A stretch of DNA of 51,206 bases, taken from a virus. Lineage: Duplodnaviria; Caudoviricetes. Shown in pieces: positions 28,012 through 47,815 of the stretch. The translations under genes were made by a program, and so were the position numbers. A model generated the notes under the pieces. That model was given only the letters and a program-made list of their open reading frames with translations, did not search any database and was not told the origin of the DNA. The stretch covers positions 1-51,206 of IMG/VR virus record IMGVR_UViG_3300020045_005791; one strand, written 5' to 3'. Each line of letters opens with the position of its first letter. The stretch's first letter is position 1.

Positions 28012-28278
28012 ATGATACAAGTAAAAGATATTGAAACCTTAGATGAATTTCAATTTTTAAAAAAAGGCGATTTAGTCGCAGTTGAATGGAAAAGAAATAT
28101 GTATTTCGGAAACAAACAAAAACGATTTGGAACTTATGAAATTGTAGAAAATAAAGAACGTACAAACGAAATTATTTTACAAGTTAAAAATAATGTTTAT
28201 TTTAATTACAATATGTTTTTAAATCCAGAAATAGGGATAAGTAATTTAAAAAGTATAATTCTTTTACAGTCGATATGA
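28012..28278 (+). CDS. Hypothetical protein
   Basis: 88 aa ORF. Confidence 0.65.
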   Translation: MIQVKDIETLDEFQFLKKGDLVAVEWKRNMYFGNKQKRFGTYEIVENKERTNEIILQVKNNVYFNYNMFLNPEIGISNLKSIILLQSI

Positions 28279-28724
28279 AAAAAATATATTTACTATTGCT
28301 TTTTACAGCAATTTCGAGCGCGCAGGATCGTTATTCAATTCAAATTGTAACTGATAACGTAATCTTCCAAAAACATATATTCTACGGTGGTGTAGAATTT
28401 CAAGCGGAATTTAGCAACCATATTTATATTCGGCCGCAAATTCATTATGCAGCTTTAAAAGATGGTTATTTAGAAACCTCGGCCGGCATAGGTTACAATA
28501 CTTCGTTAAATCGATGGAATTATAAAGGAGGTATTAAATTAGGAGTTATTAATCGAGCTAATACGTATCCAATATTTGGATATGAAGGCGCAATTGAGTA
28601 TCATTTTAGCGATAAGTTTGGTATTGGATTACGTGGTAGTTATGATAAAAGAGGCGATGCTGATTTTTACGATGGGGAGCCTTGGGTTTGGAATAGTCAG
28701 ATTTATTTAAAATTTATACTTTAG
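28275..28724 (+). CDS. Secreted outer-membrane beta-barrel-like protein
   Basis: Signal peptide MKKIYLLLLFTAISSA|Q; alternating amphipathic strands; C-terminal IYLKFIL. Confidence 0.7.
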   Translation: MKKIYLLLLFTAISSAQDRYSIQIVTDNVIFQKHIFYGGVEFQAEFSNHIYIRPQIHYAALKDGYLETSAGIGYNTSLNRWNYKGGIKLGVINRANTYPIFGYEGAIEYHFSDKFGIGLRGSYDKRGDADFYDGEPWVWNSQIYLKFIL

Positions 28725-29722: not shown

Positions 29723-30127
29723 ATGAATGGACAACAAATTGAAAAATTAGTAAAAGAACTTGTTAAAAAAGAAGTTGATTACAGAAGCTATGATGGAAAA
29801 ATGTCTAAAACATCTTTAATCGAAAGAGGTAGTGAAACTATTTTAGAGCAGATTATTAGACAGCACATTCTCGATAACCGAGATGAAAAAATCGGAGCTT
29901 TAGAAGCTAAAGTTTTTGTTTATGAAGAAATGATTAACAAAAGCACATTCGCACCAATGCTAGTTGAAAAAGAAGTTGAAACTGCAAAAGAACCTGAGCC
30001 ATATCAAAGAGAAATGATATTCACACAAAGGCAAGTCGAACATTTACAACACAAAGTTTTTAAAATTACTGGAGAAGGAGAAGTGATGAAATTGTTTAAC
30101 GAATTACTTGGTGTTTCTGCAAGTTAA
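29723..30127 (+). CDS. Hypothetical protein
   Basis: 134 aa; last gene of plus-strand island. Confidence 0.65.
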   Translation: MNGQQIEKLVKELVKKEVDYRSYDGKMSKTSLIERGSETILEQIIRQHILDNRDEKIGALEAKVFVYEEMINKSTFAPMLVEKEVETAKEPEPYQREMIFTQRQVEHLQHKVFKITGEGEVMKLFNELLGVSAS

Positions 30128-30531
30128 ACTTTTAATTTAGGCAAATAAAACCATAAAAACACTAAACATCCAATAATTAAAACAGAACCTAAATACAATA
30201 AAGTATTGTCTTTTCGTTCTGTTTGTTTAGTTTCCTTAACTTCGGTTGTTCCTGTGCTTGTTCCTATGTTTTTTTTATTTAATTCAAAATTTTTTATTTT
30301 TGATTTGTCAAACTTAATTGAAACATTAAAATATTCTTTTCCATCTACAAAGAAAGGTTTTGAATTATCAATAGGATTCAGCTCTCCAATATCATTTAAG
30401 CGAACATTTTGATTTAAAATATATGATTTATCGGTAAAGTCATAATTCGACTTTACTTTAAAGTACTCTGTTGATGATTGGCGAGTTCCTCCGCAGCTAC
30501 ATAACAATAATATGATTAGAATATATTTCAT
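30124..30531 (-). CDS. Putative unimolecular spanin
   Basis: Start MKYILIILLLCSC (lipobox) plus C-terminal TM helix; downstream of endolysin. Confidence 0.7.
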   Translation of the reverse strand: MKYILIILLLCSCGGTRQSSTEYFKVKSNYDFTDKSYILNQNVRLNDIGELNPIDNSKPFFVDGKEYFNVSIKFDKSKIKNFELNKKNIGTSTGTTEVKETKQTERKDNTLLYLGSVLIIGCLVFLWFYLPKLKV

Positions 30532-30552
30532 AATTTTTATTTCAAAGATAAT

Positions 30553-30637
30553 AAAAAACCCGATGCAAAAAGTATCGGGTTTAAGAATTTTGAAAGTCAA
30601 TAGTAATCTAAGTGACTTCTAGTTTATTTGTGTTTGA
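30553..30637 (-). ncRNA. Putative small RNA/leader between endolysin and spanin
   Basis: TATATTTG at 30643..30650, hairpin 30592..30619, terminator AACCCGATAC..GCATCGGGTTTTTT. Confidence 0.45.
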
Positions 30638-30707
30638 GAATTCAAATATACAAATAAAATTAGAATAATCGCTAAAATTATCGAAATTTCTAAGGTGTGT
30701 TTGCGGA

Positions 30708-31175
30708 TCATATCGGTTTAATTTCAAAGTGCATCCAATCATAGTCTTTTTCAACTCCTAAAGATAAAAATCCGTGTTTATAAAAAATATCAATCATCGG
30801 CTTATATTCTGGACGTGCAAATCTTGCCGTTCTTTTAGTTTCGTGCAGTGTATTTCTTTCAGGGTCTAAATCAATAGCGATACCCCAACTATGGCGGCTG
30901 TAATCTGAACCGCCTCGCATAGCACGAAAAGCAAAACAACCTCCAAATAAATCAATTCCAAGTTCTTGAATTTTAGGCAGTCCGTAAACTTGTAGAATTT
31001 CTTTGAAAACTTCAGTAAAATTAGCGGCTACCAATTTATGACAACGCATTGTTTTAACTGTTGTTTTTTTATCCCAAGCCAAACGCATAGGATAAGGTAA
31101 ATTTATAGTTACTAAATAAGTTCCGTTTTCGTTTGGTTTTCCAAAATCATTGATTGCTTGTGCTGTTGTTATCAT
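30708..31175 (-). CDS. Endolysin, M15 family Zn peptidase
   Basis: [12 protein letters not shown] (SxHxxGxAxD) and DWMHFE. Confidence 0.9.
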
Positions 31176-31477
31176 ATCTTACCAAGTAAATAAATTATTA
31201 TTGCAATTACTAAACCGCCCAATCCAGAAGCGAACCATTTTATTAGTCCCATATTGTCTTTTAAAATAGCTATTTCATCTTGATTGCGTTCTACGTCGTT
31301 TTTAACTTTTTGTAACGTGTGAACTATGCCTATACCACCCGTATATTCATTTCCAACCAAAGCATTTGAAATTTTTCTTGATTCATCCCTTGTTTCTTGA
31401 ACAGCATCTTTCATAAGTTTCATATGCTGTTCCATTCGGTCAAGTCTGGCGTTTTCTAATATTTTTTCTTCTTCCAA
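31172..31477 (-). CDS. Coiled-coil protein with C-terminal TM helix (holin/lysis accessory)
   Basis: Upstream of endolysin; [17 protein letters not shown]. Confidence 0.55.
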
Positions 31478-31794
31478 AACGGTAATAATATATGGGTTAT
31501 TATTATAGTGTAATAAATAAAGTAATACACTTTATCTGTAAGGTAAATATACAAAAAACTTAGAATAATTAAATAATAAATACACGCAAGATAAATTTTT
31601 GATATTCGAGTGTATAAAAAATAGAAAAATATAAAATGAAGTCCACAAATACCCACTAAAATAGTATCAACAATATCAATTATCTCAAAGTTTTTTTTCC
31701 AAAAGTCAGTTTTAACTAAAAAAAATACACAAAATAACTCAGTCCAAATAAGAATAATTGGAATTAGAAGCATTATTTTGTGTATCAATCTCAT
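31456..31794 (-). CDS. Multi-pass membrane protein in lysis cassette
   Basis: About four hydrophobic segments. Confidence 0.55.
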   Translation of the reverse strand: MRLIHKIMLLIPIILIWTELFCVFFLVKTDFWKKNFEIIDIVDTILVGICGLHFIFFYFLYTRISKIYLACIYYLIILSFLYIYLTDKVYYFIYYTIIITHILLPFWKKKKY

Positions 31795-32037
31795 TTACGG
31801 TCTTGGTGGTTTTGGCGAAATGATAGCGTCGGCTTCATCGCTTGCAATACCCTGTGGTTTTTGCGCTAAACTTTTACTAAAGGCAGTCCATAAAATACCA
31901 ATTGTCATAATGACTTTAGTAACATTTTCCGGAACTCCGATTTGAGCCAATAACCCTGTGTTTTCTGCTAATAAAGCGTAAACTTGATCTATAACAGTTC
32001 CTACTGTCAAAATCCACGTAATCCATCTTGTTTTCAT
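31795..32037 (-). CDS. Putative holin
   Basis: 80 aa, two hydrophobic segments, lysis cassette position. Confidence 0.55.
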   Translation of the reverse strand: MKTRWITWILTVGTVIDQVYALLAENTGLLAQIGVPENVTKVIMTIGILWTAFSKSLAQKPQGIASDEADAIISPKPPRP

Positions 32038-32076: not shown

Positions 32077-32310
32077 TCATAATCCTAATAATTTTAATAA
32101 TTTTTGCCACCAATTTATTTTTTTCTTTATTATTGGTTTTTCAATAGGTACTTCGAATTTAGGTATCCCCAAAGATATTTCTTTTTCTTTTAAATCCTGT
32201 TGCATAATTGGAAATACTTCGCCTATTGTCTCGGTTTGGTTCCCTGCTGCGATGATTGAGCTTTGACAATATCCAATATTAAACGCTAGAAGTAATATCA
32301 ATAATTTCAT
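32077..32310 (-). CDS. Small exported protein
   Basis: Signal peptide MKLLILLLAFNIGYC|Q; amphipathic C-terminus WWQKLLKLLGL. Confidence 0.6.
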   Translation of the reverse strand: MKLLILLLAFNIGYCQSSIIAAGNQTETIGEVFPIMQQDLKEKEISLGIPKFEVPIEKPIIKKKINWWQKLLKLLGL

Positions 32311-32687
32311 CGAGCCTCAAATTCAACCCCATAAATAGGTGTTTTCTTTAAATCGTCTAACAATACCAATTGAAGCGTGTAATCTTCTAAATCGTCACCT
32401 GTTAACGTTGTTGGGTAAGCTAACAATAAAGCTTTTTTTTGCGCTTTAAATTCCGCAAATGTCTTGGTATATGGCAAAACCTGTTCCGAGCCGTTACGGT
32501 CTTTATGCACTTGGAAACTTTCGTTTTCTGTACCTTTATTCAAAACTAAGTAATCCGTTGTTTTGAATTGAATTGTTTTGTTTTCAGAATCTCTATTAGT
32601 TTGCTGTATTTTGATTTGTACAAATTCCTCTAAAATTCCCTCACGGTCGTGTAAAAGAATTGCTTTTGTTTTTGATATTACTTTCAT
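32307..32687 (-). CDS. Hypothetical protein (possible fibre chaperone)
   Basis: Follows fibre genes; no signal peptide. Confidence 0.55.
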   Translation of the reverse strand: MKVISKTKAILLHDREGILEEFVQIKIQQTNRDSENKTIQFKTTDYLVLNKGTENESFQVHKDRNGSEQVLPYTKTFAEFKAQKKALLLAYPTTLTGDDLEDYTLQLVLLDDLKKTPIYGVEFEAR

Positions 32688-33565
32688 TAGTATATGGTGT
32701 AAAAGGCGTTAATATTGTTTTCAATTCCTGTTTTATCGCTTGTTTTATTAGAGTGATAAGTTATATGTTCTTGAACATAACAAACGTGTCTAAATCCTGT
32801 ATTTTGATATTGCAATCCTCTTCCAAGACTGAGTGAAACGCTTGTGAATTCACTTAGTAAAACGATAGTTCCGGTTCTAAAAGCGGTATACAAAGTGCCT
32901 CTTGTGTTGGTTAAAGCAGAAGATGAGCCATTTTTATAAATCGACGGAGTTCCCCATCCAGCATAACTCGCCGCGCTACTTCCGTTCTCGCAAGACCCGT
33001 AATAATTACCGCCACTTGATAAACCTGCACTTGTAAAAGGAAGCACGTAATTCTCCGACCCACCTGTTATTTCGTTTTGAAAAACAGTAAAAGCAGAGTC
33101 GTATGTTTGTGGTGGGTTGTTATTAACATTTAATTGCGCGGTCATTGGGGAGTAAATAGCTGGTTTTCCTGCTTTTTTAATTACCGCACCTGAAAGAACA
33201 ATTTGTGGTTGAAAACCGTTTGTTGTTTCTATTGCATTATATCCATTGCCACTTTGGTCATACCACGTTTTTACAAATCCATCACCACCACCACCCACAA
33301 AAGATAACAAAGAAACTTCATCTAAAACATTGTTTACAAATCCAATGTTGGAAGTGGAATTGTCTGAACTTCTACGAACTTCGATACAATTTCCTGTATA
33401 TGCACTTCTTAGCTTTCTAAATGAATATGCGTAAATTGCCGTTGGATAGTCATTTAGAATAAAAGAAAACGTGCTTTTCTTAGTTCCAAAATTTTGTCTG
33501 GCTATTAAGCCACTTTGTCCAAAAGTAAAAACACTAAATAATAAAAATAAAATATACTTTTTCAT
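32687..33565 (-). CDS. Receptor-binding/adhesin-like jelly-roll (ArafB/LamG-like) protein with signal peptide
   Basis: AYSFRKLRSAYTG..IEVRRSSDN and GFVKTWYDQSGNG motifs; N-terminus MKKYILFLLFSVFTFG|Q. Confidence 0.7.
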   Translation of the reverse strand: MKKYILFLLFSVFTFGQSGLIARQNFGTKKSTFSFILNDYPTAIYAYSFRKLRSAYTGNCIEVRRSSDNSTSNIGFVNNVLDEVSLLSFVGGGGDGFVKTWYDQSGNGYNAIETTNGFQPQIVLSGAVIKKAGKPAIYSPMTAQLNVNNNPPQTYDSAFTVFQNEITGGSENYVLPFTSAGLSSGGNYYGSCENGSSAASYAGWGTPSIYKNGSSSALTNTRGTLYTAFRTGTIVLLSEFTSVSLSLGRGLQYQNTGFRHVCYVQEHITYHSNKTSDKTGIENNINAFYTIY

Positions 33566-35259
33566 AGATTTCCAACTGTTATATAGTTATTTGTGGCTGT
33601 TCTGTTTTTTAAGGTAAATGACATTTTTTCTGCCATTGTAGTACCTACATTATTAAACAAAACAACTGAGCCGCCTAAAGATAAAGTTTGCGTAACACCT
33701 GCCAACGTCGCAAAGGAGCATTCGAACCCCGCAATCAAACCGTTTGGTATTGTCACGGTGCAACTCGCGGTTAATATTACAACTTTTCCGTTATAGGTGT
33801 TATCCAATGTAAATGAAGTTCCTGTTTCGACAACGGGCAAAATAGATGAGGTGCTTGACGTTGTCGAACCATCGGCCATTAAGAACTCGGTACTTGTGCC
33901 GCCTGATTTTATAAATAAATTAGCGGTTAATGCACCACCACTTGAAAACGTAAACCCTTTATTCCAAACCCCGCTTGCATAATTCCATAAATCCAAACCG
34001 TTTGAGGCATTTAGTTGAAGCATATTACTAACGGTAAATCCTGAATTATAAAAGGCAAACCTCCCACCAGAATTAGCTGTATTCGATCCATTTTTTACAA
34101 CAAAATTACCCTCGTTTGATTGTAAAATACCCCCAGTTTGAATCGATCCCGCTCGGTAAATAGTTGAAGTTTTGTCGTTCCCCGCATCCGTTGTAGTTCC
34201 ACTAAAAACAAAATTTGAAATATCAGGAACAGTCTTAGTTACATAAGTAGAACCGTTGTAAACCCAAGTACTAGCATCTGTGCCTATGTATAGATTAGCC
34301 GTATCTAATTTCAAAGCATTATCATTAGTAACAGGTGGATTATTTAAATCAAATATCGTTGCTGTGTTTGGTGATGTTGCATTCACATAAACTATTTTAG
34401 TGTACGAGGTGGGTAATTTTGAATTTATATAATCGGCTGTATAATATTTTGCACCACTCCCATCTACTGCATAGGCATTGATTTTATTAGTTTTCATTTC
34501 GTACCCTGCATCTACAACTGAAAACGGTACAGGCAACAAAGTACGGACGGGGGTATCTCCTCCAAACTGAAATTGATAAACGGGGTCGGAACCACCTACA
34601 ATTCTATTAGCATAACTTTTAATAACGATCCTATCCGTTGCGGCAAAATCGCCGTCGTCCCAAACTCCCGAGGCTGAAAACTCAGTATATCCGCCGTCTG
34701 TAACAGGGTTAGAAGTGCTCGAGGTACAAATCAAAGTTTCAACGCCTGCGGCGTCTCTGTGGTAAACTCTAAAGAAAAAAGTCGCTGTTCCTGAGCCGCT
34801 TAAATGTCGAATATTTCCAAAAGTAGTGATATTAAAAACTCCTGGCTGTCCTATCAAAACGCCCGCGTCTGAAATTCTTTGTGATACTAATTGTGAAGTT
34901 GTGGTAATTGCGGGAGTGCTTACATCAGCCGCTGTACTGTTATATCTTACGTCGTGAATGTCCGTAACCATTACCACGTAGCCGCTTACGTCGCTTGCCG
35001 TTGTGGTCGGGTATAAGGTTAAGTTAGTTGGTAAATCTGAAATGTTTAGTTTTTTATCTAAACTGTCTTGTACCGCCTGTGTTTTAGCAAACAGTGAAGC
35101 GGGTGTTTTTTTGTGTACATTATCTGTTTGACTTGTAACAATAAAAGTAGGTGCGCTGTCAGAAGTTGCTGCAGCATTCTTAATCCCATAAGGAAAATTA
35201 GTTGGATTCTGAGCCAACACCAAAATAGGTAATAATAAAAATAAAAGTATCTTTTTCAT
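33562..35259 (-). CDS. Tail fibre-like protein with signal peptide
   Basis: Thr/Ser/Gly-rich; FIKSGGTSTEFLMADGS fibre motif; C-terminal adaptor ending ITVGNL; N-terminus MKKILLFLLLPILVLA|Q. Confidence 0.7.
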   Translation of the reverse strand: MKKILLFLLLPILVLAQNPTNFPYGIKNAAATSDSAPTFIVTSQTDNVHKKTPASLFAKTQAVQDSLDKKLNISDLPTNLTLYPTTTASDVSGYVVMVTDIHDVRYNSTAADVSTPAITTTSQLVSQRISDAGVLIGQPGVFNITTFGNIRHLSGSGTATFFFRVYHRDAAGVETLICTSSTSNPVTDGGYTEFSASGVWDDGDFAATDRIVIKSYANRIVGGSDPVYQFQFGGDTPVRTLLPVPFSVVDAGYEMKTNKINAYAVDGSGAKYYTADYINSKLPTSYTKIVYVNATSPNTATIFDLNNPPVTNDNALKLDTANLYIGTDASTWVYNGSTYVTKTVPDISNFVFSGTTTDAGNDKTSTIYRAGSIQTGGILQSNEGNFVVKNGSNTANSGGRFAFYNSGFTVSNMLQLNASNGLDLWNYASGVWNKGFTFSSGGALTANLFIKSGGTSTEFLMADGSTTSSTSSILPVVETGTSFTLDNTYNGKVVILTASCTVTIPNGLIAGFECSFATLAGVTQTLSLGGSVVLFNNVGTTMAEKMSFTLKNRTATNNYITVGNL

Positions 35260-36005
35260 AAGTAGTAAGTAATTAGTATTTGTGGAGTTCCATCGAATGT
35301 AGTCGCAAAAGTAACATCGTTTCCTGATTGCGTGAATGTGTTTAAATCTGCTTCAAAACCTACTTGTTCTTTATATTGAAAATAACCGTCTATGGTTGCG
35401 CTTACCGCTACTGCTCCCTCTGGTAACGTGCAAACTTGACCTACAGGGGTAAAACGAGTTGTAAAAACTCCTATTGAATTTATAGGAGGTTTATTTAATA
35501 TGAAAGCGTCACTTTCAGGATCTTCTTCGTTCCAATCTGACTGTACATTTACTTCTGCATTTGCCTCAATTCCATCTAATTTAGTTTTATCAGCAGCGGA
35601 AAACAAAGAAATTGCAACCGTTTCTATTTTTAATTCGGATTCGTTTACAACCAATACTTGACCATCACGACCTAAATAACTCGAGAAAGTGTCTAATAGT
35701 TCCGTAAATCTATCTACTCCAGTGCCTCCACCGCTTGTACCCAACCAATCGAAAAATCCTGCATCGATTAAAGAAACCCATAAATCATTTATAGATGTTG
35801 GAACGTACGAACTACCTGTGACAATGGTTATTTCTGAATAAAGTATATTTTGTTTTAATATTAAATTTGCGCCATTAGCCGTTTTAAAATTACAAAAGTC
35901 TCCAATAGTAGTAAGTCTATTTTGTTCAGAAACAATAGGCTCTCCACCATCTAAAACTAAAGAGAAAAAATTCCCTGTTTCTTTTGTAATTATTAAATTA
36001 CTCAT
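35256..36005 (-). CDS. Tail fibre proximal/anchor protein
   Basis: DKTKLDGIEANAEVNVQSDWNE..SDAFILNKP fibre motif. Confidence 0.65.
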   Translation of the reverse strand: MSNLIITKETGNFFSLVLDGGEPIVSEQNRLTTIGDFCNFKTANGANLILKQNILYSEITIVTGSSYVPTSINDLWVSLIDAGFFDWLGTSGGGTGVDRFTELLDTFSSYLGRDGQVLVVNESELKIETVAISLFSAADKTKLDGIEANAEVNVQSDWNEEDPESDAFILNKPPINSIGVFTTRFTPVGQVCTLPEGAVAVSATIDGYFQYKEQVGFEADLNTFTQSGNDVTFATTFDGTPQILITYYL

Positions 36006-36517
36006 AATTTCATTATATAAAGTTGTACAATGTATGGTTGCATATTCTTATCTGTTCCATCAACTCCTGTTAATTCTGTTGAAATTCCTGCGCTTGACGC
36101 CGTATTTGATCTATCATAAAATCCATTTATTCCCTGTGTATTATTATAGCTTCTAACCGAATTTACCGTGTGACTATGCGAAACTACTACAGCATCTTTT
36201 GAACCGCCTGTTGCGCCAAAAGTTGAATATCCTAAACCATATCCAACAATAGTTTTACCTGCTATATTTGGAGTTCCATTATTCCCATTACAAACCGCCC
36301 ATCCTGAACGTAGATTTTTACCTAAACCATCAACTTCAAAATTATATGTATAATAAGTCAAATCGCAATTAATCGGTTTTATATCGCCTGATTGTGATAA
36401 ATTAGCTTGAATATAATCAAGTAATGCGTGTTCGACTTCACGATGTTTTAAAGCAGGTATTTTTATTCCGCTTGCAAGATTTTCATCTATTAAATAAAAT
36501 ATTTCTGAATAAGTCAT
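36002..36517 (-). CDS. Tail collar/short fibre (T4 gp10/gp12 C-terminal-like) protein
   Basis: GWAVCNGNNGTPN, GGS..HSH, NMQPY..YIMK. Confidence 0.8.
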   Translation of the reverse strand: MTYSEIFYLIDENLASGIKIPALKHREVEHALLDYIQANLSQSGDIKPINCDLTYYTYNFEVDGLGKNLRSGWAVCNGNNGTPNIAGKTIVGYGLGYSTFGATGGSKDAVVVSHSHTVNSVRSYNNTQGINGFYDRSNTASSAGISTELTGVDGTDKNMQPYIVQLYIMKL

Positions 36518-36522: not shown

Positions 36523-36960
36523 TTAAAAATAAAATTCAATTTTCAGCCCGCAGTTATTCAAAATATCATCAGAGATAACTCCATTGTCATAGGTTCTAAC
36601 TCTAAACGTATCACCTATTTTTATAATCGTGAAACTATTTAGCGCGAATGCTCCTTCTGAAAGAAATGATATACACATGAACGCATTTAAAGAAGAATTA
36701 CACGTCAATATATATTCTCCTGTAGAGTTTCTTGTCCATACAAATAAAAATCCTGTGTTGTTTTTAGTTGCTGTATTTACAGGCGCGTTTGCTCCTGATT
36801 GACTCAAAGTGGCTGCGTAAATAAAGTATGGAACTTGCTGATCAACATAATCCATCATTAAAACACGGTTTGCACCATCTTCAGTATTTGTAAAACTTCC
36901 TGCTGCTGTCTTACTTGTTATTTTAGTTGAAATGTCGGTATTAACGTCTGCTCTTGTCAT
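36523..36960 (-). CDS. Putative tail structural protein
   Basis: Position; YAATLSQSG..WTRNSTGEY beta-rich pattern. Confidence 0.55.
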   Translation of the reverse strand: MTRADVNTDISTKITSKTAAGSFTNTEDGANRVLMMDYVDQQVPYFIYAATLSQSGANAPVNTATKNNTGFLFVWTRNSTGEYILTCNSSLNAFMCISFLSEGAFALNSFTIIKIGDTFRVRTYDNGVISDDILNNCGLKIEFYF

Positions 36961-36971: not shown

Positions 36972-37844
36972 TTAATTGTAAACACTACTATAAACATTTG
37001 TATGTATTCTTGTCGGTGTTGGAATTGGTACTTCATCAGTATTGTAATCTGCGCTTCCATAATCAATCCCGTTATAATCAGCTAATCCAAAGAAATTATC
37101 GTTATAATTTGGAGATAAAGAATAAGAAGTTTCGATAAAGTTTTCTTGTGCTGTTTTAGATGGTAAATCAATAGCTTCAAATAATGAACATCGAATATAA
37201 TTCACATACAAAACAGGACTCTCTAATAAATCAGTAAGTAAAATTACAACCGATTTAGGCATTAATTCAGTTCTAAACCTTTCTATTTTACTTGTTTTAA
37301 TGGCTTGTGAAACGGTGTTTTTGGTAGAAACTTCGTAATAAGTTGTAAGTTCTGTTTTTTTATCTTCTTCATCAAACCAAGTTTGAATACCTATACTTTG
37401 GTAAACATCGTCTTTATTGTCTCTGTAATGAAATTGTGTAGTTTTTTCATTCTCAATATTGGTAAGTAAAAACGGTGTAGAATAAAAAGTTTCTCCTACT
37501 AATTGAGTAATTTCAAGATAAACCAATCTATAACCAAAATCAAAAGGCACATTTGTAAGCGACCAATATAATTGAGGCGCACCATCTAAATCATTAGTCA
37601 ATGAATCTACAAAGAAATATGCTGTAAAATCGGTTTTAGTACCTTTGCATAAATCAACTACATTAACCGTCCAATCTTCTAAATCAATCCCGCTTGGAGT
37701 TTCTGTAACTTGAATGTATTTTGAAGCGTTATTAGGTAGCAACTGAACCCCTTTAAATATAAATTGCGTGTTTATTTGGCTGTTCTTAAAGTAGAAAGCT
37801 TCGTCTTTTGTCCGAAATATGTTTATAAAGGGTTTAACTGCCAT
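36972..37844 (-). CDS. Putative tail tip/baseplate protein
   Basis: 290 aa, first gene of fibre operon. Confidence 0.55.
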   Translation of the reverse strand: MAVKPFINIFRTKDEAFYFKNSQINTQFIFKGVQLLPNNASKYIQVTETPSGIDLEDWTVNVVDLCKGTKTDFTAYFFVDSLTNDLDGAPQLYWSLTNVPFDFGYRLVYLEITQLVGETFYSTPFLLTNIENEKTTQFHYRDNKDDVYQSIGIQTWFDEEDKKTELTTYYEVSTKNTVSQAIKTSKIERFRTELMPKSVVILLTDLLESPVLYVNYIRCSLFEAIDLPSKTAQENFIETSYSLSPNYNDNFFGLADYNGIDYGSADYNTDEVPIPTPTRIHTNVYSSVYN

Positions 37845-37978: not shown

Positions 37979-38003
37979 ACGAGCAGATTCGAACTGCGCT
38001 CGT
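37979..38003 (-). other. T-loop minihelix directly 3' of tRNA
   Basis: ACGA-GC-GCAG-TTCGAAT-CTGC-TCGT. Confidence 0.5.
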
Positions 38004-38075
38004 GGAATAGAAAGGAATCGAACCTTTGACATTCAGATTTTCAGTCTGACACTCTACCTACTGAGTTACTAATCC
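38003..38075 (-). tRNA. tRNA-Phe(GAA)
   Basis: GGATTAG acceptor (one U-U mismatch), D arm ACTC-AGTAGGTA-GAGT, anticodon arm TCAGA-CTGAAAA-TCTGA, T arm AAAGG-TTCGATT-CCTTT; CCA not encoded. Confidence 0.92.
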
Positions 38076-38234: not shown

Positions 38235-38459
38235 CTATTCAGCTTTTTCAAACTTACAAATATACTCTTGACCAGCTTCAAAAAAATCTAAAGCATCAGG
38301 ATTTGTAATGTGAATTTTTACTGAAGCATTAGGGGTATAAATGCTAAAAGTTTTGTTTTCTTCAGAATTATTGATAACTGCTGAAAGATTTGCTTCAACG
38401 TTATTATTTCCGTAATCTGTTACTGAACCAACTTTGAATTTTGCTAATAATGTTTTCAT
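38235..38459 (-). CDS. Conserved phage hypothetical protein
   Basis: AKFKV, EENK.F..YTP, ITNP.A..FF..GQEY pattern. Confidence 0.75.
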   Translation of the reverse strand: MKTLLAKFKVGSVTDYGNNNVEANLSAVINNSEENKTFSIYTPNASVKIHITNPDALDFFEAGQEYICKFEKAE

Positions 38460-38497: not shown

Positions 38498-41089
38498 TTA
38501 TTTCAATAAGTCTAACCAAACTTTCAAAGTTTCTAAATCTGGAGCAATTGCACCGTTAATTGAAATTTCCATCCAATAAATCCCGTTATACAATCGGTAA
38601 CGATTCAAATCGAATAAATAAACTTTTTCGTTTTTAATTTCATAAATAACTTCATCAACTCCTGTTTCGTTATTTATCAAATAATATCCTGTTTTAGTTT
38701 CGATTGTCATTGACGATGGTTCGTATTTTTCTTCGGCCTTGATTGTTAGTTTTTTCTCAAGCAATGAATATTCAATATTGATAGGGTAAACTTTTATAAC
38801 CTGTTCGTTATTATCAATTGTTCTAATATATCCACGCTCCGAACGAATATTGTTTTGCAATGTAATAAAATCCGTAAATTCTACATTAGCGAAAATAATT
38901 TCGTTATATAAATTTGGTGATAATATTGGATTATCTGGCACAATATCCGCTTTCTCGGTTAATTTTACACCGTCATATTTTGCCGTGTAGTCTCCATTAT
39001 TTTTGTACCAAGTGTTTTTTAATGGTTTATTTTTCCAATACAAATTACAAGTCGCAATGTAAGATTGCCAATAATTATAAATATTTCTTTTAATCGAATA
39101 ACGTCTATTACTATAACTATCAGCACTATTTAAATTTTCTGTTTCACTAAATCCTTGATTTGTGTAATTAGTAAATGGAACGAATGACTGTGATAATGTA
39201 TATTTGTAAGTTGTCAGTCTTGTGCCGTCGCCTGTTATAGTTGTGATTCCTAAAACTCGATTTAATTCTAAAGTGTTTTCAGTTACGTTTGTCACTAAAT
39301 AAGTTCCTGCATTTGCATCGATTGGCAAAATATAAAAATAACTGCCTACTTGTATTCCTAAAGAATTGAAATTAATTGAACCGTCATTTCTTAAAGTCAG
39401 TCTAAATGTAGTCGGATTATAATTGTGTTGCAGCTCAGTAACTTCAATAAATTCATTATCGAAAGTCGTGTCAATAGAATCAATACAAAACATAGTATCA
39501 TCGTCTTGGCTTGCTGTATTTTCTTTTATTACTATTGCTTTTCTTCTGGTTGCTTCAATTAAAAATGCGTCACGTGTCCAATCTACTTCAACAGGTTTTT
39601 TATTCTCAACCGCTTTATTATAAAACACAAATTTACTTTCTCCGTGTATAGTATCGGCACTATTTATTTCTTCATTCTCTTTTTGTGATTGATAATTCGA
39701 ATACCTAAATCCAAATTCATTAACCATAAAACGAGGATTGAAAGTTTTGTTCATTTCTGAAAACTGAGTGTTGTTAAAAAAACCGCTTTCAGTATTTGTG
39801 TAAAAATCTTCTTCAATTCCAAAAAACACTTTCCCATCTGATCCAATTTCATAATCGGCATTCATTTCTACAATTGATTTTTCAATATCTTCTAAACTCA
39901 CATAAAATGGCTTATTTATAATCCCTCTTAAAAAGTTTCCGTTTACTAATCGGTTATCATAAAATTGTCCTAACTCTTCAAATCGAGGTGCGTTTATTTG
40001 CAAACCTGACGTTGATTTTATAATTTGCCTTACAACATCTACCAAACGCAAAGATTTTGATACTGAATTATAAGCTATACTTTCCGCACTAATTTTAATT
40101 TCTGAAAGATTAAAAGTAGCTTCCATTTTTATAGCAGGAAAAGGAGGTTCATAAAATTTAGTTTGAAAAATATACATTTTAAAGTATAAATAAATTTCAT
40201 CTCCTCTGTTTAGTTTTTCAATATCCAAATTGTAGTTTGCTAAATTAAAAGTAAATGTTTCAGAAGTAATCAAGTTTGTTAGTTCTTTATACTCAGTATA
40301 AATAATATTTTCAACACCTGCAACCTTTAGAATCAAATCTATTTTTGCATTTCCAACACCTCCGTTGGCGTGCTGAGTAAAAATTCCATTTACCGAAATA
40401 GTTTTAATATTTATTTTTACTTTATTCAAATTATTTACAGCTCTTACAATTAAATAATTGCTTTCACCTCCATTATTTATATTGCTTTCAGGCGAAAAGA
40501 AAGTAAAACTATTTTCTATTTCGCTTTTTATTAGATTTATACACGGATTTATAAATATTTTTGAATTAGTCCCTGTTAGCCAATTATTTGTATATTGTGC
40601 ATCTTGTTTCCATTCACTAGCCTGAATAACAGGCTTAGCCAATAATAGCATATTTTCTGGAATCAAACCACCTATATAATTACCGTCTACATCTACATCG
40701 CTTAAAACGTCTACTTTTACCGCTTTTCTGGCATTTATTATCTGTAATTTAGAATCTTCAATACCTTTACATTTAAAGTATTCCAAATCGTCAGTTTCAG
40801 CAGTCGCAAAATCTAAATCACAATTATATTTATTATTTTCATCAATTTCAATAGTCAAAACTACAACCGATTCAAAACCGAACTTTCTATGATAATAAAG
40901 TAGTTGTTTAAGTTCGTGATTTCTTTTATCTGTAAATTCAAATTGAATTTCATTACCACTGAATGAAATATCACGCCCCATTTTATTAGGCTTTTGGTTT
41001 AATGAAAAATTAATATCTGAAGTCCCGAACGGTTCATCAATTTGTTTCTTTCCGAAATTATCACTTTTGAAGTCTAAAAAAAATCTCAT
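38498..41089 (-). CDS. Large tail (hub/Tal-like) protein, copy B (863 aa)
   Basis: Downstream of tape measure; homologue of 1..2566. Confidence 0.8.
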   Translation of the reverse strand: MRFFLDFKSDNFGKKQIDEPFGTSDINFSLNQKPNKMGRDISFSGNEIQFEFTDKRNHELKQLLYYHRKFGFESVVVLTIEIDENNKYNCDLDFATAETDDLEYFKCKGIEDSKLQIINARKAVKVDVLSDVDVDGNYIGGLIPENMLLLAKPVIQASEWKQDAQYTNNWLTGTNSKIFINPCINLIKSEIENSFTFFSPESNINNGGESNYLIVRAVNNLNKVKINIKTISVNGIFTQHANGGVGNAKIDLILKVAGVENIIYTEYKELTNLITSETFTFNLANYNLDIEKLNRGDEIYLYFKMYIFQTKFYEPPFPAIKMEATFNLSEIKISAESIAYNSVSKSLRLVDVVRQIIKSTSGLQINAPRFEELGQFYDNRLVNGNFLRGIINKPFYVSLEDIEKSIVEMNADYEIGSDGKVFFGIEEDFYTNTESGFFNNTQFSEMNKTFNPRFMVNEFGFRYSNYQSQKENEEINSADTIHGESKFVFYNKAVENKKPVEVDWTRDAFLIEATRRKAIVIKENTASQDDDTMFCIDSIDTTFDNEFIEVTELQHNYNPTTFRLTLRNDGSINFNSLGIQVGSYFYILPIDANAGTYLVTNVTENTLELNRVLGITTITGDGTRLTTYKYTLSQSFVPFTNYTNQGFSETENLNSADSYSNRRYSIKRNIYNYWQSYIATCNLYWKNKPLKNTWYKNNGDYTAKYDGVKLTEKADIVPDNPILSPNLYNEIIFANVEFTDFITLQNNIRSERGYIRTIDNNEQVIKVYPINIEYSLLEKKLTIKAEEKYEPSSMTIETKTGYYLINNETGVDEVIYEIKNEKVYLFDLNRYRLYNGIYWMEISINGAIAPDLETLKVWLDLLK

Positions 41090-41176
41090 ATCCTTTTAAA
41101 TTTTATTCAAATATACAAAATAAATGTTTATATTTGTATTGCAATCGTATGAAGTGATACGAAACATTACAAAACT

Positions 41177-41206
41177 AAAAGACCTCTTTAATCGGAGGTC
41201 TTTTTT
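41177..41206 (+). terminator. Leader terminator in moron
   Basis: AAAAGACCTC-TTTAATCG-GAGGTCTTTTTT. Confidence 0.8.
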
Positions 41207-41220
41207 AATTTATATAAGTT

Positions 41221-41334
41221 ATGAGAGAAATATTTAAAGTTATTAATGATTATCCTTGGACAACTTTTTTATGTTGGTTAATGATAATTACTTGTTTAGC
41301 CGTTTTATCTGAAATAAATAATAAAAAATCATGA
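41221..41334 (+). CDS. 37-aa single-TM peptide
   Basis: MREIFKVINDYPWTTFLCWLMIITCLAVLSEINNKKS; ATGA-coupled to next ORF. Confidence 0.6.
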   Translation: MREIFKVINDYPWTTFLCWLMIITCLAVLSEINNKKS

Positions 41335-41510
41335 AAGAAATAGAATTAAAAAAAGAACAATTAGAGAAAAACATTTCTATTTTAATTATTGAATTTGCAA
41401 AAGAAATAAATAGTAATGATTTAGACGTTGATATTGAAATTTCAAAAGCAAAGCAAGGAACAAGATGTGTAATGACTAATATTAAAGTAAGTGTGTCTAT
41501 TAATGTTTAG
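41331..41510 (+). CDS. 59-aa hypothetical protein
   Basis: MKEIELKKEQLEKNISILIIEFAKE...IKVSVSINV. Confidence 0.6.
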   Translation: MKEIELKKEQLEKNISILIIEFAKEINSNDLDVDIEISKAKQGTRCVMTNIKVSVSINV

Positions 41511-41515
41511 AAATT

Positions 41516-41719
41516 ATGAGAAAAATACCTGATTTAGAAATAAAAGGAAACACAGATGGATTGATTACAAAAATACATTTGTATTTATTAGAACTTAAAG
41601 AAGAAATACACACTCCATATCTTATCGGATATGAAAATGACGATTTTGTAAAAGATGTAACAAGAGTTCGTTTTTACCCTGAAGAAATATTAGAAGAAAA
41701 CAAATTAAAAACCCCTTAA
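41516..41719 (+). CDS. 67-aa hypothetical protein
   Basis: Third ORF in moron. Confidence 0.6.
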   Translation: MRKIPDLEIKGNTDGLITKIHLYLLELKEEIHTPYLIGYENDDFVKDVTRVRFYPEEILEENKLKTP

Positions 41720-41733
41720 TTAAAGGGGTTTAT
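41707..41733. terminator. Probable bidirectional terminator
   Basis: AAAACCCCTT-AATTA-AAGGGGTTT between convergent genes. Confidence 0.7.
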
Positions 41734-41735
41734 TT

Positions 41736-44129: not shown

Positions 44130-44130
44130 A

Positions 44131-44760
44131 TTAATTTTGTTTAGATTTTTCTTCTAATAATTTGCACATTTCAATCCATTCTAAAACTGTTATTTCTTTA
44201 GGATTAATTCTATTTATTTGTAAACCAATTTGAGCTATTAATAATTGCTTAGTTAAATTAGTGCTCTCAATTGTTTCATCTTTTTTTAATTCAATTTCAA
44301 TCAATGAAATTCGTGTTTTCAATCCTTCGCACTGAGTATTTAAACGTTGTAATTCAACTGCGTCGCCATCAATTGTATTTATTTCTGACATTTTAAAACC
44401 GTATTCAGCTAATTTTTTAACAAATAATAAGCGAACATCCATTTCATTGTCTCCGAATCCTAACCACATTATTTTTATTAATTCTTTTACAACATTATAT
44501 TTTAGTCTCAATAAGTAAATTTCAGCCATTTTTTGCAATCTATTTGTAAACGAACGATCATCAATTGCCTTGAAATATTCATCAAGAATGATTTTCTCAA
44601 TAGGTTGCAAAGTTTCGATCGGTTGTTTAGTTTGCCTACCATCATACCCAACTATAAACCAATTCATATCCGAGGTAGTTCGATATTTGTCGAAGTTGTA
44701 TAGCGGTAAAATATCGATGCTATCGTAGTATTTTGTTTTAGATGTGTTGAATAGTTTCAT
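44131..44760 (-). CDS. Putative tail assembly chaperone, copy B
   Basis: Homologue of 5127..5750. Confidence 0.55.
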   Translation of the reverse strand: MKLFNTSKTKYYDSIDILPLYNFDKYRTTSDMNWFIVGYDGRQTKQPIETLQPIEKIILDEYFKAIDDRSFTNRLQKMAEIYLLRLKYNVVKELIKIMWLGFGDNEMDVRLLFVKKLAEYGFKMSEINTIDGDAVELQRLNTQCEGLKTRISLIEIELKKDETIESTNLTKQLLIAQIGLQINRINPKEITVLEWIEMCKLLEEKSKQN

Positions 44761-45221
44761 AAATACTTTTTTACAAATTTCATCAGTTCTGGATATATGA
44801 TTGAATAATTCACAATATCGCTGTTATTTTTATTTAAACCAAATAAATTGTTGTAACCCTTAAAAAACAAAGATTTATCTCCGCTTCCTGTTCCTGTGCT
44901 AAAAATATCAAATTTAGTCAAATTAGGCTGTAAATCAATTTGCATATTCGATAAAAAAGCACCTGTTTGAAAGAAATTATAAGGAGTTCCTGCTATTTTT
45001 AACGGGTCTAATAATTGTGTTGATAAAGAATAAACTCCTTTAAAACGGCTATTACTGTTATTTAAAACATTTCCATCGCTTCCAATTCCATCTTGAAAAG
45101 CATCAACATTCAAACTAATTATTTTATCTTCATTAGCAAGCACAATTCTTTCCTGCTCGTTCAGCATTTCACGTGCTACAAGTTCGCATTTTTTGATATA
45201 ATCGTTTATGGTTGTTGGCAT
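44757..45221 (-). CDS. Tail completion/virion morphogenesis-like protein, copy B
   Basis: MPTTINDY, homologue of 5747..6211. Confidence 0.5.
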   Translation of the reverse strand: MPTTINDYIKKCELVAREMLNEQERIVLANEDKIISLNVDAFQDGIGSDGNVLNNSNSRFKGVYSLSTQLLDPLKIAGTPYNFFQTGAFLSNMQIDLQPNLTKFDIFSTGTGSGDKSLFFKGYNNLFGLNKNNSDIVNYSIIYPELMKFVKKYL

Positions 45222-45409
45222 TCTTTCCAATGAGTAATGTTATCAACTTCTTCTCCTATTTCATCTGACCAAAATCCAACGCCTCCGCTTTCAAAATAAT
45301 CGCCTTCAAACCACTCTAAAACTCTTTCGTGTCCTTGATCATTTTTTGTTAAGTAATTTTTAACTTCATTTGGAGGCGTTCCAGTATTCCATTCCATAAT
45401 TTCTATCAT
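45206..45409 (-). CDS. DUF551-like small protein, copy B only
   Basis: MEW....PP..YL....ITHW pattern. Confidence 0.6.
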   Translation of the reverse strand: MIEIMEWNTGTPPNEVKNYLTKNDQGHERVLEWFEGDYFESGGVGFWSDEIGEEVDNITHWKECQQP

Positions 45410-45415
45410 TTCAAA

Positions 45416-45455
45416 CAAAGATATAAAAAAAAGCGATACATTACGCATCGCTTTT
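45416..45455 (-). terminator. Terminator followed by TATCTTTG promoter box
   Basis: AAAGCGATGC-GTAAT-GTATCGCTTTTTTTT then ATATCTTTG. Confidence 0.75.
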
Positions 45456-45476
45456 ATTCTCCTTTCTTTTTAATTA

Positions 45477-46385: not shown

Positions 46386-46525
46386 TTTATAAATTTGTTT
46401 AAGATTAATTTATCAATTGTTTTTTTGTCAGTGAGTTGGATTTTAGAACCAACTTTATACAATTTATCTACCGTAATTTCTTTTTTTACAGTAAATGTTT
46501 GTTTTTTTATTTCTTTTTCAGCCAT
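46382..46525 (-). CDS. Small hypothetical protein (47 aa), copy B
   Basis: Homologue of 7187..7339. Confidence 0.65.
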   Translation of the reverse strand: MAEKEIKKQTFTVKKEITVDKLYKVGSKIQLTDKKTIDKLILNKFIK

Positions 46526-46528
46526 AGC

Positions 46529-47813: not shown

Positions 47814-47815
47814 AA

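Follow-up and report, generated by a model that had tools for sequence, protein, structure and literature searches.

In textbook tailed phages, every part of the particle is built in the cytoplasm, where the particles are also assembled. The receptor-binding proteins of G7C, CBA120 and K1-5 dock non-covalently on a small adaptor via a short N-terminal domain, and we know of no signal peptide on these adaptor-tailspike proteins. Phage proteins that do use the Sec machinery include signal-peptide and SAR endolysins, spanins and lipoprotein exclusion factors, such as T5 Llp, a phage-coded, Sec-dependent envelope protein that blocks the receptor. The genes of these proteins are early or late and exploit host Sec, as we propose here for tail fibres, but their products act in the envelope and are not parts of the particle.

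Among SPase I substrates, exposure of Gln at position +1 (the Q-rule) specifically characterises those of Bacteroidetes (PMC5837995, PMC10653852). Known substrates of this kind are proteins of the cell itself, located in the periplasm or outer membrane or secreted, whereas the cargo described below belongs to a virus particle whose other parts are built in the cytoplasm. Leader genes exposing Gln in Porphyromonas gingivalis prophages have been taken as phage use of general secretion (Matrishin et al. 2023, PMC10367356); that report deals with five such genes, of unknown function and read as envelope modifiers, with no link to tail fibres or docking. A cultured phage of a Flavobacteriaceae host, Cellulophaga phage phi18:3 (NC_021794.1), carries three consecutive large proteins just upstream of its lysis genes (gp085, gp086 and gp087), each with a Lys-rich, hydrophobic leader followed by Gln, and its record annotates them as virion/tail proteins 'based on experimental MS/MS proteomics analysis'. 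This arrangement resembles that of the DNA studied here, but the phi18:3 genome is of another type (71 kb, encoding a recombinase and a repressor), and a phage-collection search detected no similarity of the phi18:3 proteins to the fibre body discussed below.

We analysed a stretch of 51,206 nucleotides, hereafter the window, which derives from an uncultured, long-tailed and apparently lytic phage of Flavobacteriia; neither an integrase nor a repressor was seen in it. As in G7C, CBA120 and K1-5, a gene for a small particle-bound adaptor is followed by exchangeable receptor-binding modules (Table 1). The genes of the 565-aa fibre body and the 292-aa tip belong to a tail-fibre operon located between distal tail proteins and lysis genes, and ATGA or TAATG overlaps couple the genes from 36002 to 32077, including the stop of the 171-aa gene with the start of the 249-aa gene. 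Relatives of the 290-aa protein occupy the syntenic position at eleven loci (L012, L016, L018-21, L027, L047, L048, L052 and L053), and it has no match in Pfam or PHROG. The 171-aa protein matches phrog_8469 (7.7e-9) and phrog_1800 (1.3e-5), the C-terminal part of the 145-aa protein also ends some long leader-bearing fibres (P0060, P0075, P0090), and the 126-aa protein has no family match and no relative among the viral loci compared.

Table 1. Features of the fibre operon and lysis region, with positions in the window and residues in the respective proteins
Feature	Position	Strand	Basis or remark
Fibre operon gene 1, 290 aa, no leader	36972..37844	-	Syntenic relatives, 70-87% identity
145-aa fibre-operon protein, no leader	36523..36960	-	
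171-aa tail collar/fibre-like protein, no leader	36002..36517	-	Tail and collar fibre families in PHROG
249-aa fibre stub (adaptor), no leader	35256..36005	-	
C-terminal 'socket' domain of stub, residues 174-249	35259..35486	-	jackhmmer
565-aa fibre body gene, leader-bearing	33562..35259	-	
Signal peptide of 565-aa protein, residues 1-16	35212..35259	-	Predicted cut after Ala16, Gln17 = +1
'Plug' N-module of mature 565-aa protein, residues 17-55	35095..35211	-	FPYGIKN at 22-28
Sugar-binding-type beta-sandwich of 565-aa protein, residues ~80-245	34525..35022	-	AF2, Foldseek
C-terminal module of 565-aa protein, residues 474-565, candidate second socket	33565..33840	-	
292-aa tip protein gene, leader-bearing	32687..33565	-	
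Domains of 292-aa protein: signal peptide 1-16, short ARQNF module, GH54-like beta-sandwich 34-292			
126-aa protein, no leader, translationally coupled	32307..32687	-	
77-aa small protein, hydrophobic N-terminus, between fibres and holin-like genes	32077..32310	-	
Lysis cassette: three small membrane proteins, M15 peptidase endolysin, lipoprotein	30124..32037	-	
M15 peptidase endolysin	30708..31175	-	Peptidase_M15_4 at 6.4e-9 and endolysin PHROGs
Lipoprotein with C-terminal membrane span, lysis cassette	30124..30600	-	Translation

The original prediction had noticed Sec-type N-termini on the 565-, 292- and 77-aa proteins, and we found all three on the minus strand as it had quoted them, each followed by Gln. 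In each, Lys at positions 2-3 is followed by a hydrophobic stretch free of charged residues, and small residues occupy -3 and -1; the residues at the predicted cleavage site are VLA before the Gln in the 565-aa protein and TFG in the 292-aa protein. Our leader screen, a crude scoring of hydropathy, K/R content and position rather than a trained predictor, returned 5 of the 77 non-overlapping ORFs of the window as leader-like, namely these three genes and, from the lysis cassette, the endolysin-adjacent lipoprotein and a membrane protein with several passes. By the same screen, the fibre leaders have the positively charged n-region and the uncharged h-region of about 8-14 residues expected of Q-rule substrates of Sec and SPase I. 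The upstream 290-, 145-, 171- and 249-aa proteins lack such a start in both their translations and the screen, as had been claimed for the collar and anchor proteins. Since the ATGs overlap the preceding stop codons, that of the 565-aa gene lying in the stop of the 249-aa gene, there is no space for another start upstream.

Neither the 565-aa nor the 292-aa leader contains the Cys of a lipobox, and no T9SS C-terminal domain was matched in either protein (Pfam E<=0.1, NCBIfam E<=1) or in the 10 other leader fibres tested. The 77-aa protein does have a Cys before its Gln, but by eye the residues ahead of this Cys do not form a typical lipobox. The endolysin of the window has no leader, and the spanin-like lipoprotein shows a lipobox-type Cys. 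As judged from their translations, the 565-aa and 292-aa leaders lack none of the sequence features that mark Sec/SPase I substrates in Bacteroidota.

Homologues keep the leader. Among the 120 relatives of the 565-aa protein listed, 62 bear one, and all 62 have Gln at +1; n-, h- and c-regions of the kind described for Q-rule substrates (PMC5837995, PMC10653852) are common to the window and these 62 proteins. In the 59 with a normally called start, residue -1 is G (31), A (26) or S (2), and the h-region varies freely. Five leaderless relatives that share the N-module are without the Gln. When the mature N-terminus alone was searched against 1.84 billion representatives, 39 of its 41 matches lay at an N-terminus, preceded by a full leader in 33 cases and by a remnant of one in the other 6. 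Across 49 related viral loci, the 24 leader-like ORFs among 180 plus-strand ORFs of at least 280 aa all lie in the fibre position, although the close loci come from a narrow metagenome set (ids 3300020036-3300020050), so that these counts are not independent samples. The invariant Gln and the 24/24 fibre positions make the leaders more than chance, and the pattern of conserved and free positions is that of selection preserving leader function, not leader sequence.

The leaders extend beyond siphoviruses to loci with quite different structural modules. At L001, within the contig portion analysed, a 997-aa leader-bearing pectate-lyase-type protein is the sole large protein between portal and lysis genes. 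The nearest cultured relatives, taken by the 863-aa tail protein, have fibre proteins without leaders (Olleya phage Harreka_1 and Flavobacterium vB_FspS phages). The O-glycosylation motif of Bacteroidota shows no excess in the 565-aa protein (3 observed vs 3.2 expected) or across fibres with and without leader (observed/expected 0.64 vs 0.52), and cysteine content is no different (0.31 vs 0.35 per 100 aa).

The comparison of relatives also dissects the fibre into modules. Residues 1-173 of the stub are 79-81% identical to the N-termini of fused fibres (P0031, P0034, P0035, P0057 and P0087), and cultured cyanophages have tail fibre proteins that match residues 135-173; by this homology, residues 1-173 are the particle-side part. 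Fibres whose N-terminus is the stub or another type of anchor are 70-80% identical to the core of the 565-aa protein (residues 56-379), and the beta-sandwich of this protein shares 60-80% identity with its counterpart in fibres that begin differently. In the AF2 model, the beta-sandwich has a pLDDT mostly of 85-95 (whole-model mean 68), and its Foldseek matches are CBM22 modules and cyanophage fibre/needle domains (E 9e-6 to 5e-4). The C-terminal module also forms the very end of fibres built on different bodies (P0005, P0073, P0081 and P0082) and is homologous to the C-terminus of the fibre at L034; in both the window and L034 a leader-bearing gene with an ARQNF module follows. The relatives carry variable C-terminal esterase or lyase domains (GDSL esterase, sialate O-acetylesterase, pectate-lyase). 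Because the core is common to fibres anchored covalently on the particle and the folds are of sugar-binding type, the 565-aa and 292-aa proteins are identified as tail-fibre parts.

The tip had been called a jelly-roll adhesin, which fits its model (AF2 pLDDT 87.4) in that this matches the beta-sandwich of GH54 arabinofuranosidase (E 8e-9, TM 0.57). It matches phrog_10356, 'virion structural protein', at 8.2e-16, and its hit to PF09206 is 21 bits, under the cut-off of 25, over residues 47-116 only; we file it as GH54-like by predicted fold and make no enzyme claim. The domain forms the C-terminal part of a protein of at least 400 aa in 57 of 77 viral-locus relatives and, in cultured phages, is embedded in minor tail or virion structural proteins; among the 120 relatives listed, just 9 have a leader. 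The 77-aa protein turned out to be a weak example: its leader-like start is there, but is not kept in its three relatives, whose conserved part begins inside the end that had been presumed mature. These relatives lie directly after leader-bearing fibres (L001, L003 and L017) and lack a typical leader. Its hydrophobic start may be the membrane anchor of a lysis-linked protein.

How the stub and the fibre body are joined is suggested by three states of the syntenic spot. In the fused state (L016 and L027; 5 of the 120 listed proteins), stub residues 1-173 continue into the core, and socket, leader and plug are all missing. The spot is split with a leader in the window and at L012, L018-21 and L048, and split without one at L047 and L052. 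By jackhmmer, the socket ends 20 small proteins or ORFs in the 49 loci, and fused fibres lack it. The socket ORF is followed directly by a leader-bearing ORF in 16 cases and by a leaderless fibre in two; in the other two, the next ORF belongs to an inserted gene block with the leader fibre 2.7 kb on. Conversely, the 17 leader-plus-plug fibres have a socket gene directly upstream (14), 2.7 kb upstream (2) or lie at a locus edge (1), and every plug with an assessable neighbour (14/14) is directly preceded by a gene ending in a socket. Sockets are borne by at least five different N-terminal anchor types, while plug and leader move as one unit ahead of different fibre bodies. Plug and socket thus co-occur in these genomes, and both are lost in fused forms.

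Complex modelling of the 565-aa fibre with the stub, proposed along with the original prediction, scored above controls. With three copies each of stub residues 135-249 and fibre residues 17-100, the median score was 0.65 (runs 0.65, 0.06 and 0.83) and the best of three controls 0.01. Of 80 solved complexes, 58 reach the mark we used, as do 2 of 110 mismatched pairs; this calibration holds only roughly here because of our own alignments and the 3+3 design. At least 2% of contacts are shared between the runs, one of which scored just 0.06, and partner pLDDT is at least 63; the predicted interface places fibre residues 21-30 against stub residues 204-242. The model supports a contact of plug with socket, and the stub and the 565-aa fibre are likely held by a non-covalent plug-and-socket joint, which is new in this analysis.

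We suppose that the outer, sugar-binding fibre parts probably complete their maturation outside the cytoplasm and are added to the virus at a late stage. Late attachment, which the original prediction had suggested, receives indirect backing from the docking pair and from the MS/MS-annotated virion proteins with leaders in phi18:3. In the assembly route that we favour, the tail fibre would be built of separate modules with no covalent bonds between them. The leaderless stub would be made in the cytoplasm and seated on the particle via its N-terminal part, while the 565-aa body and the 292-aa tip would pass through Sec to the periplasm and be cut by SPase I after Ala16 and Gly16, respectively. 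The exposed Gln would be cyclised to pyroglutamate, as is normal in Bacteroidota. The new N-terminus of the body, with FPYGIKN within residues 21-30, would then plug into the C-terminal socket of the stub, and the ARQNF start of the tip would probably plug likewise into the C-terminal module of the body. Since particle and distal fibre would be made on opposite sides of the inner membrane, they could meet only when the holin opens this membrane or the cell lyses; our guess is that docking at lysis must be fast. Export, cleavage, pyroglutamate formation and the time of docking are what we infer from the leaders and the joint, and the whole sequence of export, cleavage and docking after the inner-membrane breach comes, in our estimate, slightly short of an even chance.

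Folding in the periplasm had been suggested, but a need for it is unlikely: the same core, at the identity given above, occurs leaderless and fused, so that export is not required for its folding. This finding also suits a cytoplasmic alternative, in which the hydrophobic start goes unused for export, the fibre docks in the cytoplasm, and the segment is kept, cleaved otherwise or skipped by a later start. Tailed-phage assembly is, after all, cytoplasmic, and the plug begins just 4 residues past the predicted cut. A later start is conceivable for 8 of the 23 distinct leader genes, which have ATG, GTG or TTG in the last five leader codons (the 565-aa gene of the window reads TTG GTG TTG at codons 13-15), and six database entries begin at such a near-cut start. 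However, no alternative start codon lies close to the cut in the other 15 leader genes, and very hydrophobic leaders are normally efficient export signals. A Gln at +1 in 62/62 and a small residue at -1 in 59/59 have no reason to persist unless SPase I cuts, leaderless variants are without that Gln, and the h-region lacks the conservation to be expected of a structural helix. We therefore consider docking in the cytoplasm rather unlikely. A kept N-terminal segment could, for instance, be buried at the joint or tether the fibre to the membrane.

The exported proteins might instead act in the envelope and not on the particle, as fibre-derived decoys or enzymes on the receptor polysaccharide; the purpose of such proteins could be to exclude other phages or to stop progeny adhering to debris. 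The leaders, the sugar-binding folds and the GDSL esterase, sialate O-acetylesterase or pectate-lyase domains of relatives all agree with this role, as does the existence of Sec-dependent receptor blockers of the T5 Llp type among phage-coded proteins. The Q-rule genes of P. gingivalis prophages are also read as envelope modifiers (PMC10367356). Yet the co-occurrence of plug and socket, their joint loss in fused fibres and a complex model above controls all point to the particle, and the genes are translationally coupled within a late structural operon. With no integrase or repressor seen, there would be no lysogen to protect; with neither a T9SS domain nor a lipobox, an outer-membrane route is missing, and PADLOC gave no match. 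Furthermore, the leader protein at L001 is the only large fibre candidate in view there, and the phi18:3 leader proteins are annotated as virion-detected. An envelope role in place of docking thus appears distinctly unlikely.

Both routes at once, with an unexported part building particles in the cytoplasm and an exported part serving the envelope, would reconcile the docking and leader evidence without assembly at lysis and could draw on the near-cut start codons in 8/23 leader genes, but no pool-splitting feature was found in the other 15/23 and strong leaders leave little precursor behind, which makes this combination a distinctly doubtful one.

Returning to docking after the inner-membrane breach, our literature search found no paper on such a pathway, in agreement with the original prediction, which had known of none. 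More tentatively still, we propose that particle completion may take place outside the cytoplasm in many tailed phages of Bacteroidota, with receptor-binding fibre modules that are Sec-exported, cut by SPase I and pyroglutamate-capped snapping onto cytoplasm-built particles through a portable plug-and-socket joint only at the holin breach. The plug-socket pair, a short motif and a 75-residue domain, provides a handle for pull-down, mutation and swaps of receptor-binding modules, and predicts the fibre gene in unannotated Flavobacteriia phages. Cellulophaga phage phi18:3, which is cultured and has existing virion mass-spectrometry data, makes the case directly testable. Secreted fibres could explain odd behaviour of Bacteroidota phage fibre genes on expression or annotation. 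If true, a fibre delivered via host secretion would add an extra compartment to phage assembly and tie infectivity to lysis, giving a two-compartment assembly line in which lysis is the last assembly step.

The N-termini of the 565-, 292- and 77-aa products of the fibre operon agree exactly in sequence with the original prediction of Sec-type leaders, each starting with a Lys-rich stretch followed by an uncharged hydrophobic run, small residues at -3/-1 and Gln. As had also been noted for the upstream collar and anchor proteins, the upstream 290-, 145-, 171- and 249-aa proteins of the operon have no such start. Our leader screen, a crude one of our own and not SignalP, flags 5 of the 77 non-overlapping ORFs in the window: these three genes, a lipoprotein gene adjoining the endolysin gene, and a multi-pass membrane protein. 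Between 36002 and 32077, each gene start overlaps the preceding stop (ATGA or TAATG); therefore, the leader-coding bases lie inside genes, and the six genes are produced jointly as late structural products.

Our sequence analysis also extends the leader to a large family. Among the best 120 of the 260 relatives of the 565-aa protein (E <= 0.001), 62 carry a leader, 59 at the called start and 3 behind an over-long gene call, and Gln is found at +1 in 62/62; the -1 residue of the 59 is G (31), A (26) or S (2). The hydrophobic core varies freely among these relatives, and it is the function of the leader that is kept, not its sequence. Because five relatives (P0022, P0023, P0032, P0053 and P0094) begin directly at the mature N-module, lacking both the leader and its Gln, this residue belongs to the leader and not to the N-module. 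A search with the mature N-terminus (residues 17-70, without the leader) against 1.84 billion cluster representatives yields 41 matches, 39 of them N-terminal: 33 behind a full leader and 6 behind a leader remnant with the small-residue-then-Gln ending. For the 292-aa protein, 9 of the 120 relatives listed have a leader, including the closest ones. According to two reports, Gln exposure by signal peptidase I is a Bacteroidetes trait, and the pyroglutamate so formed stabilises extracytoplasmic proteins (PMC5837995, PMC10653852). As judged from these patterns, the leaders have the look of functional export signals that selection maintains.

It seems unlikely to us that the leader is unused, kept on the protein, or bypassed. 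Bypass would be allowed by alternative start codons, which lie near the cut in 8 of the 23 distinct leader genes, the window included, but the invariant Gln at +1 argues against this whole reading. In the 565-aa gene, codons 13-15 read TTG GTG TTG in a row, immediately ahead of the predicted cut. An ATG stands at -3 in several relatives, and six database entries begin at such a point. There are hints of a leaderless isoform in some phages. An internal-start leaderless isoform was rejected as a general rule, since ATG, GTG or TTG occurs within the last five leader codons in only those 8 genes and the other 15 have no alternative start near the cut.

The 77-aa gene did not hold up as the source of a third exported protein. 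The three relatives found (in loci L001, L003 and L017) lack the Lys residues and most of the hydrophobic run. Since the leader is not kept, and the conserved part begins inside the presumed mature end of the window protein, we treat the product as a small, probably membrane-associated protein bordering the lysis cassette, rather than as a third exported fibre part. Members of this family, hydrophobic at the start and ending in a basic amphipathic stretch, lie between the leader fibre and holin-like genes in four phages; none was seen in two fused-fibre loci, a very small sample. Lipoprotein-type leaders with a conserved Cys-Gly-(Gly)-Thr-Arg start adjoin the endolysin gene in the window and three related loci, and the window lipoprotein has an extra C-terminal membrane span, resembling a one-piece spanin. 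A 149-aa protein, encoded in the plus-strand block between lysis and early genes, has a leader ending in Ser-Ala-Gln and a weak outer-membrane beta-barrel match (TIGR04565, E 0.039); it may be an envelope moron.

Coordinates of features in the window and in related viral loci (L numbers)
Feature	Source	Coordinates	Strand	Remark
Portal, major head protein, tape measure protein	window		-	first block of unit
863-aa distal tail protein	window		-	phrog_15220
73-74-aa conserved protein	window	38235..38459	-	between distal tail gene and fibre genes
73-74-aa conserved protein	L004	9667..9888		immediately upstream of leader fibre
tRNA-Phe (GAA)	window	38002..38075	-	within tail operon, between 863-aa distal tail gene and fibre genes
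Fibre operon	window	36972..37844 down to 32077..32310	-	after tRNA-Phe in unit order
249-aa stub	window	35256..36005	-	
565-aa fibre	window	33562..35259	-	
Codons 13-15 of 565-aa gene	window	35215..35223	-	
292-aa tip protein	window	32687..33565	-	
77-aa gene	window	32077..32310	-	
77-aa family member	L001	11255..11479		
77-aa family member	L003	8045..8251		
77-aa family member	L017	10105..10311		
Lysis cassette with M15 peptidase endolysin	window		-	after fibre operon
Lipoprotein gene	window	30124..30600	-	
Lipoprotein gene	L001	13413..13802		
Lipoprotein gene	L007	15843..16238		
Lipoprotein gene	L053	15147..15593		
149-aa protein	window	28275..28724	+	
Replication genes	window			last block of unit, after lysis cassette
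Direct repeats	window	2..12118 and 38498..51174		
Small unrelated genes, ~2.7 kb	L004	7464..9888		between socket stub and leader fibre
Small unrelated genes, ~2.7 kb	L032	7317..9754		between socket stub and leader fibre
Second pair	L004	13884..14522, 14525..15382		

We compared the syntenic spot downstream of the 290-, 145- and 171-aa genes in the window and 49 non-duplicate related viral loci, where three states are found: fused, split with a leader, and split without a leader. In the fused state (L016 and L027; proteins P0031, P0034, P0035, P0057 and P0087), residues 1-173 of the stub are joined to the fibre core from residue 56 in one protein, without the leader, the N-module or the stub C-terminal domain. 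In the split state with a leader (the window, L012, L018-21 and L048), a stub of ~250 aa ending in a 75-residue C-terminal domain is followed directly by the leader, N-module and core; L047 and L052 are split without a leader. The fused and split states differ by the stub C-terminal domain (socket), the leader and the N-module (plug), and the socket and plug profiles give no match to the fused forms.

According to a jackhmmer profile of the socket, 20 small proteins in the 49 loci end in this domain. Their N-termini fall into at least five kinds, and each kind looks like the attachment end of a fibre. The next ORF, within 150 bases of the socket gene, has a leader in 16 of the 20 cases and is a leaderless fibre in 2, while the remaining 2 socket genes are followed by a 2.7-kb block of small genes and then a leader fibre. 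Conversely, the socket gene is directly upstream of 14 of the 17 fibres with leader and N-module; one of the other three is at a locus edge, and two have a socket gene 2.7 kb upstream. A stub match in the crAss-like phage cr50_1 was set aside, being inside a long tail protein and not a socket-plus-leader pair.

The pairing of the 565-aa N-terminus with the stub passed a multimer check. With the stub tail (135-249) and the mature fibre start (17-100) modelled in three copies each, the median score is 0.65 (runs 0.65, 0.06 and 0.83), against 0.01 for the best of three controls. Of 80 solved complexes, 58 attain the score mark, as do 2 of 110 mismatched pairs, a rough calibration given our own alignments and 3+3 design. 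Contact agreement in the runs is at least 2% and partner pLDDT at least 63. The confident predicted interface lies between fibre residues 21-30 (FPYGIKN, four residues past the predicted cut) and stub residues 204-242, and the model supports binding of the FPYGIKN plug to the stub socket.

Over its final ~75 residues, the 565-aa protein shares homology with the end of the L034 fibre. The gene after this C-terminal module bears, in either locus, a leader with an ARQNF module following the Gln, the product being 292 aa in the window versus 532 aa with a different body in L034. From the sequences of these two direct cases only, a second joint of the same logic, between the 565-aa C-terminal module and the ARQNF start, is likely. 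In L004, a 212-aa protein whose end weakly resembles the socket (E 0.003) comes after a 1293-aa leader fibre and is itself followed by another leader-bearing protein with a different N-module, a sign that such joints may form chains.

The 565-aa protein is a mosaic of leader (1-16), N-module (17-55), a strongly conserved core from ~56, a variable middle, and a C-terminal module (474-565) that recurs at the extreme end of otherwise different fibres. The well-predicted part of its AF2 model (mean pLDDT 68) is a beta-sandwich at residues 80-245, with CBM22 and cyanophage needle and fibre domains as best structural matches (E 9e-6 to 5e-4), and in relatives a GDSL esterase, sialate O-acetylesterase or pectate-lyase domain follows further along. 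Receptor-binding fibres and tailspikes typically have this architecture. The 292-aa model (pLDDT 87.4, pTM 0.84) has the beta-sandwich of the GH54 arabinofuranosidase catalytic domain (E 8e-9, TM 0.57), a likeness by fold only; the Pfam score for the GH54 domain is 21 bits, below the 25-bit cut-off, and a solved-structure search by sequence returned nothing useful. In cultured cyanophage and actinophages, the domain lies within 'virion structural' or 'minor tail' proteins. It forms the C-terminal part of a protein of at least 400 aa in 57 of 77 viral-contig relatives, just one of the 77 having a leader. The 292-aa protein is a fibre-tip domain, made in this phage lineage as a separate leader-bearing protein.

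Across the 49 loci, 24 of the 180 plus-strand ORFs of at least 280 aa are leader-like, all 24 in the fibre position and with at least four N-module types, although locus counts are not independent, the close loci being drawn from a small range of metagenome ids. Protein matches were also drawn from ENA, Logan and NCBI sources. L001 shows a compact order of portal, two small proteins, a 120-aa socket protein, a 997-aa leader-bearing pectate-lyase-type protein and lysis genes, the 997-aa protein being the sole large fibre candidate in the contig part examined. The two nearest cultured relatives have no leaders, and their fibre is one long protein with a stub-type start. In Cellulophaga phage phi18:3, gp085, gp086 and gp087 immediately precede the lysis genes, and all three begin with a leader then Gln; the record annotates them as virion structural/tail 'based on experimental MS/MS proteomics analysis', and they have no detectable sequence similarity to the window fibre. 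Our search of paper texts found no description of leader-bearing tail fibres or receptor-binding proteins; a rumen-phage paper merely counts signal peptides, and a North Sea flavophage paper does not mention them. The nearest precedent is five unknown genes with leaders and Gln at +1 in P. gingivalis prophages, read as envelope modifiers (PMC10367356).

The window is one entire metagenome contig of 51,206 bases, holding ~1.3 copies of a ~39-kb phage unit. Its direct repeats (spacing 38.5-39.2 kb) duplicate the portal-to-distal-tail module at only 65-90% identity, which disfavours a simple terminal repeat and instead suggests either a tandem arrangement of two related phages or a wrap-around assembly that is a chimera of two strains. 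The second copy's fibre operon is beyond the window. No integrase is present among the ten largest early genes of the window, and PADLOC gives no match, leaving defence-system membership unsupported. Because the nearest cultured relatives, as judged by the 863-aa protein, include Olleya phage Harreka_1 (29% identity) together with the Flavobacterium vB_FspS siphoviruses, the host is very probably a member of the Flavobacteriaceae. The fibre-region DNA and the 565-aa protein have no match among cultured phages and their proteins, respectively, and a scan of 185,579 species genomes found no relative.

The evidence on export points two different ways: the leaders seem to be functional export signals, yet the distal proteins look built to dock on the leaderless stub of a cytoplasmic particle. 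We tentatively propose, as a reading that is quite possible though short of probable, that the distal fibre modules would be exported and cut, and would not come into contact with the particle until holin action breaches the inner membrane or lysis occurs; it takes the leader evidence and the docking evidence both at face value. Fibre addition is the last assembly step in well-studied phages, so late docking is physically possible. The original prediction of exported distal parts joining virions late is in part supported by leaders that look under selection and, indirectly, by the docking parts, but a need for periplasmic folding is unlikely, because the same core works in fused and leaderless forms. 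Other purposes of export were rejected. The host's O-glycosylation motif D-S/T-A/I/L/V/M/T is not enriched (3 versus 3.2 expected in the 565-aa protein; observed/expected in relatives 0.64 with and 0.52 without a leader), cysteine content does not differ between leader-bearing and leaderless proteins, which disfavours disulfide formation, and no C-terminal sorting domain of T9SS cargo occurs in the 565-aa protein, the 292-aa protein or 10/10 other leader fibres.

A purely envelope role, as receptor maskers or enzymes, is improbable in view of the plug and socket, the coupling within the late operon, and the fact that no route across the outer membrane was found. We also hold a split pool serving both ends to be rather improbable.

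The window thus presents a modular tail fibre with the host's export signal on its distal modules. What this analysis adds is the predicted plug-and-socket joint, whose three natural states turn the puzzle into simple experiments. A demonstration of two-compartment assembly would establish a new pathway of tailed-phage assembly.
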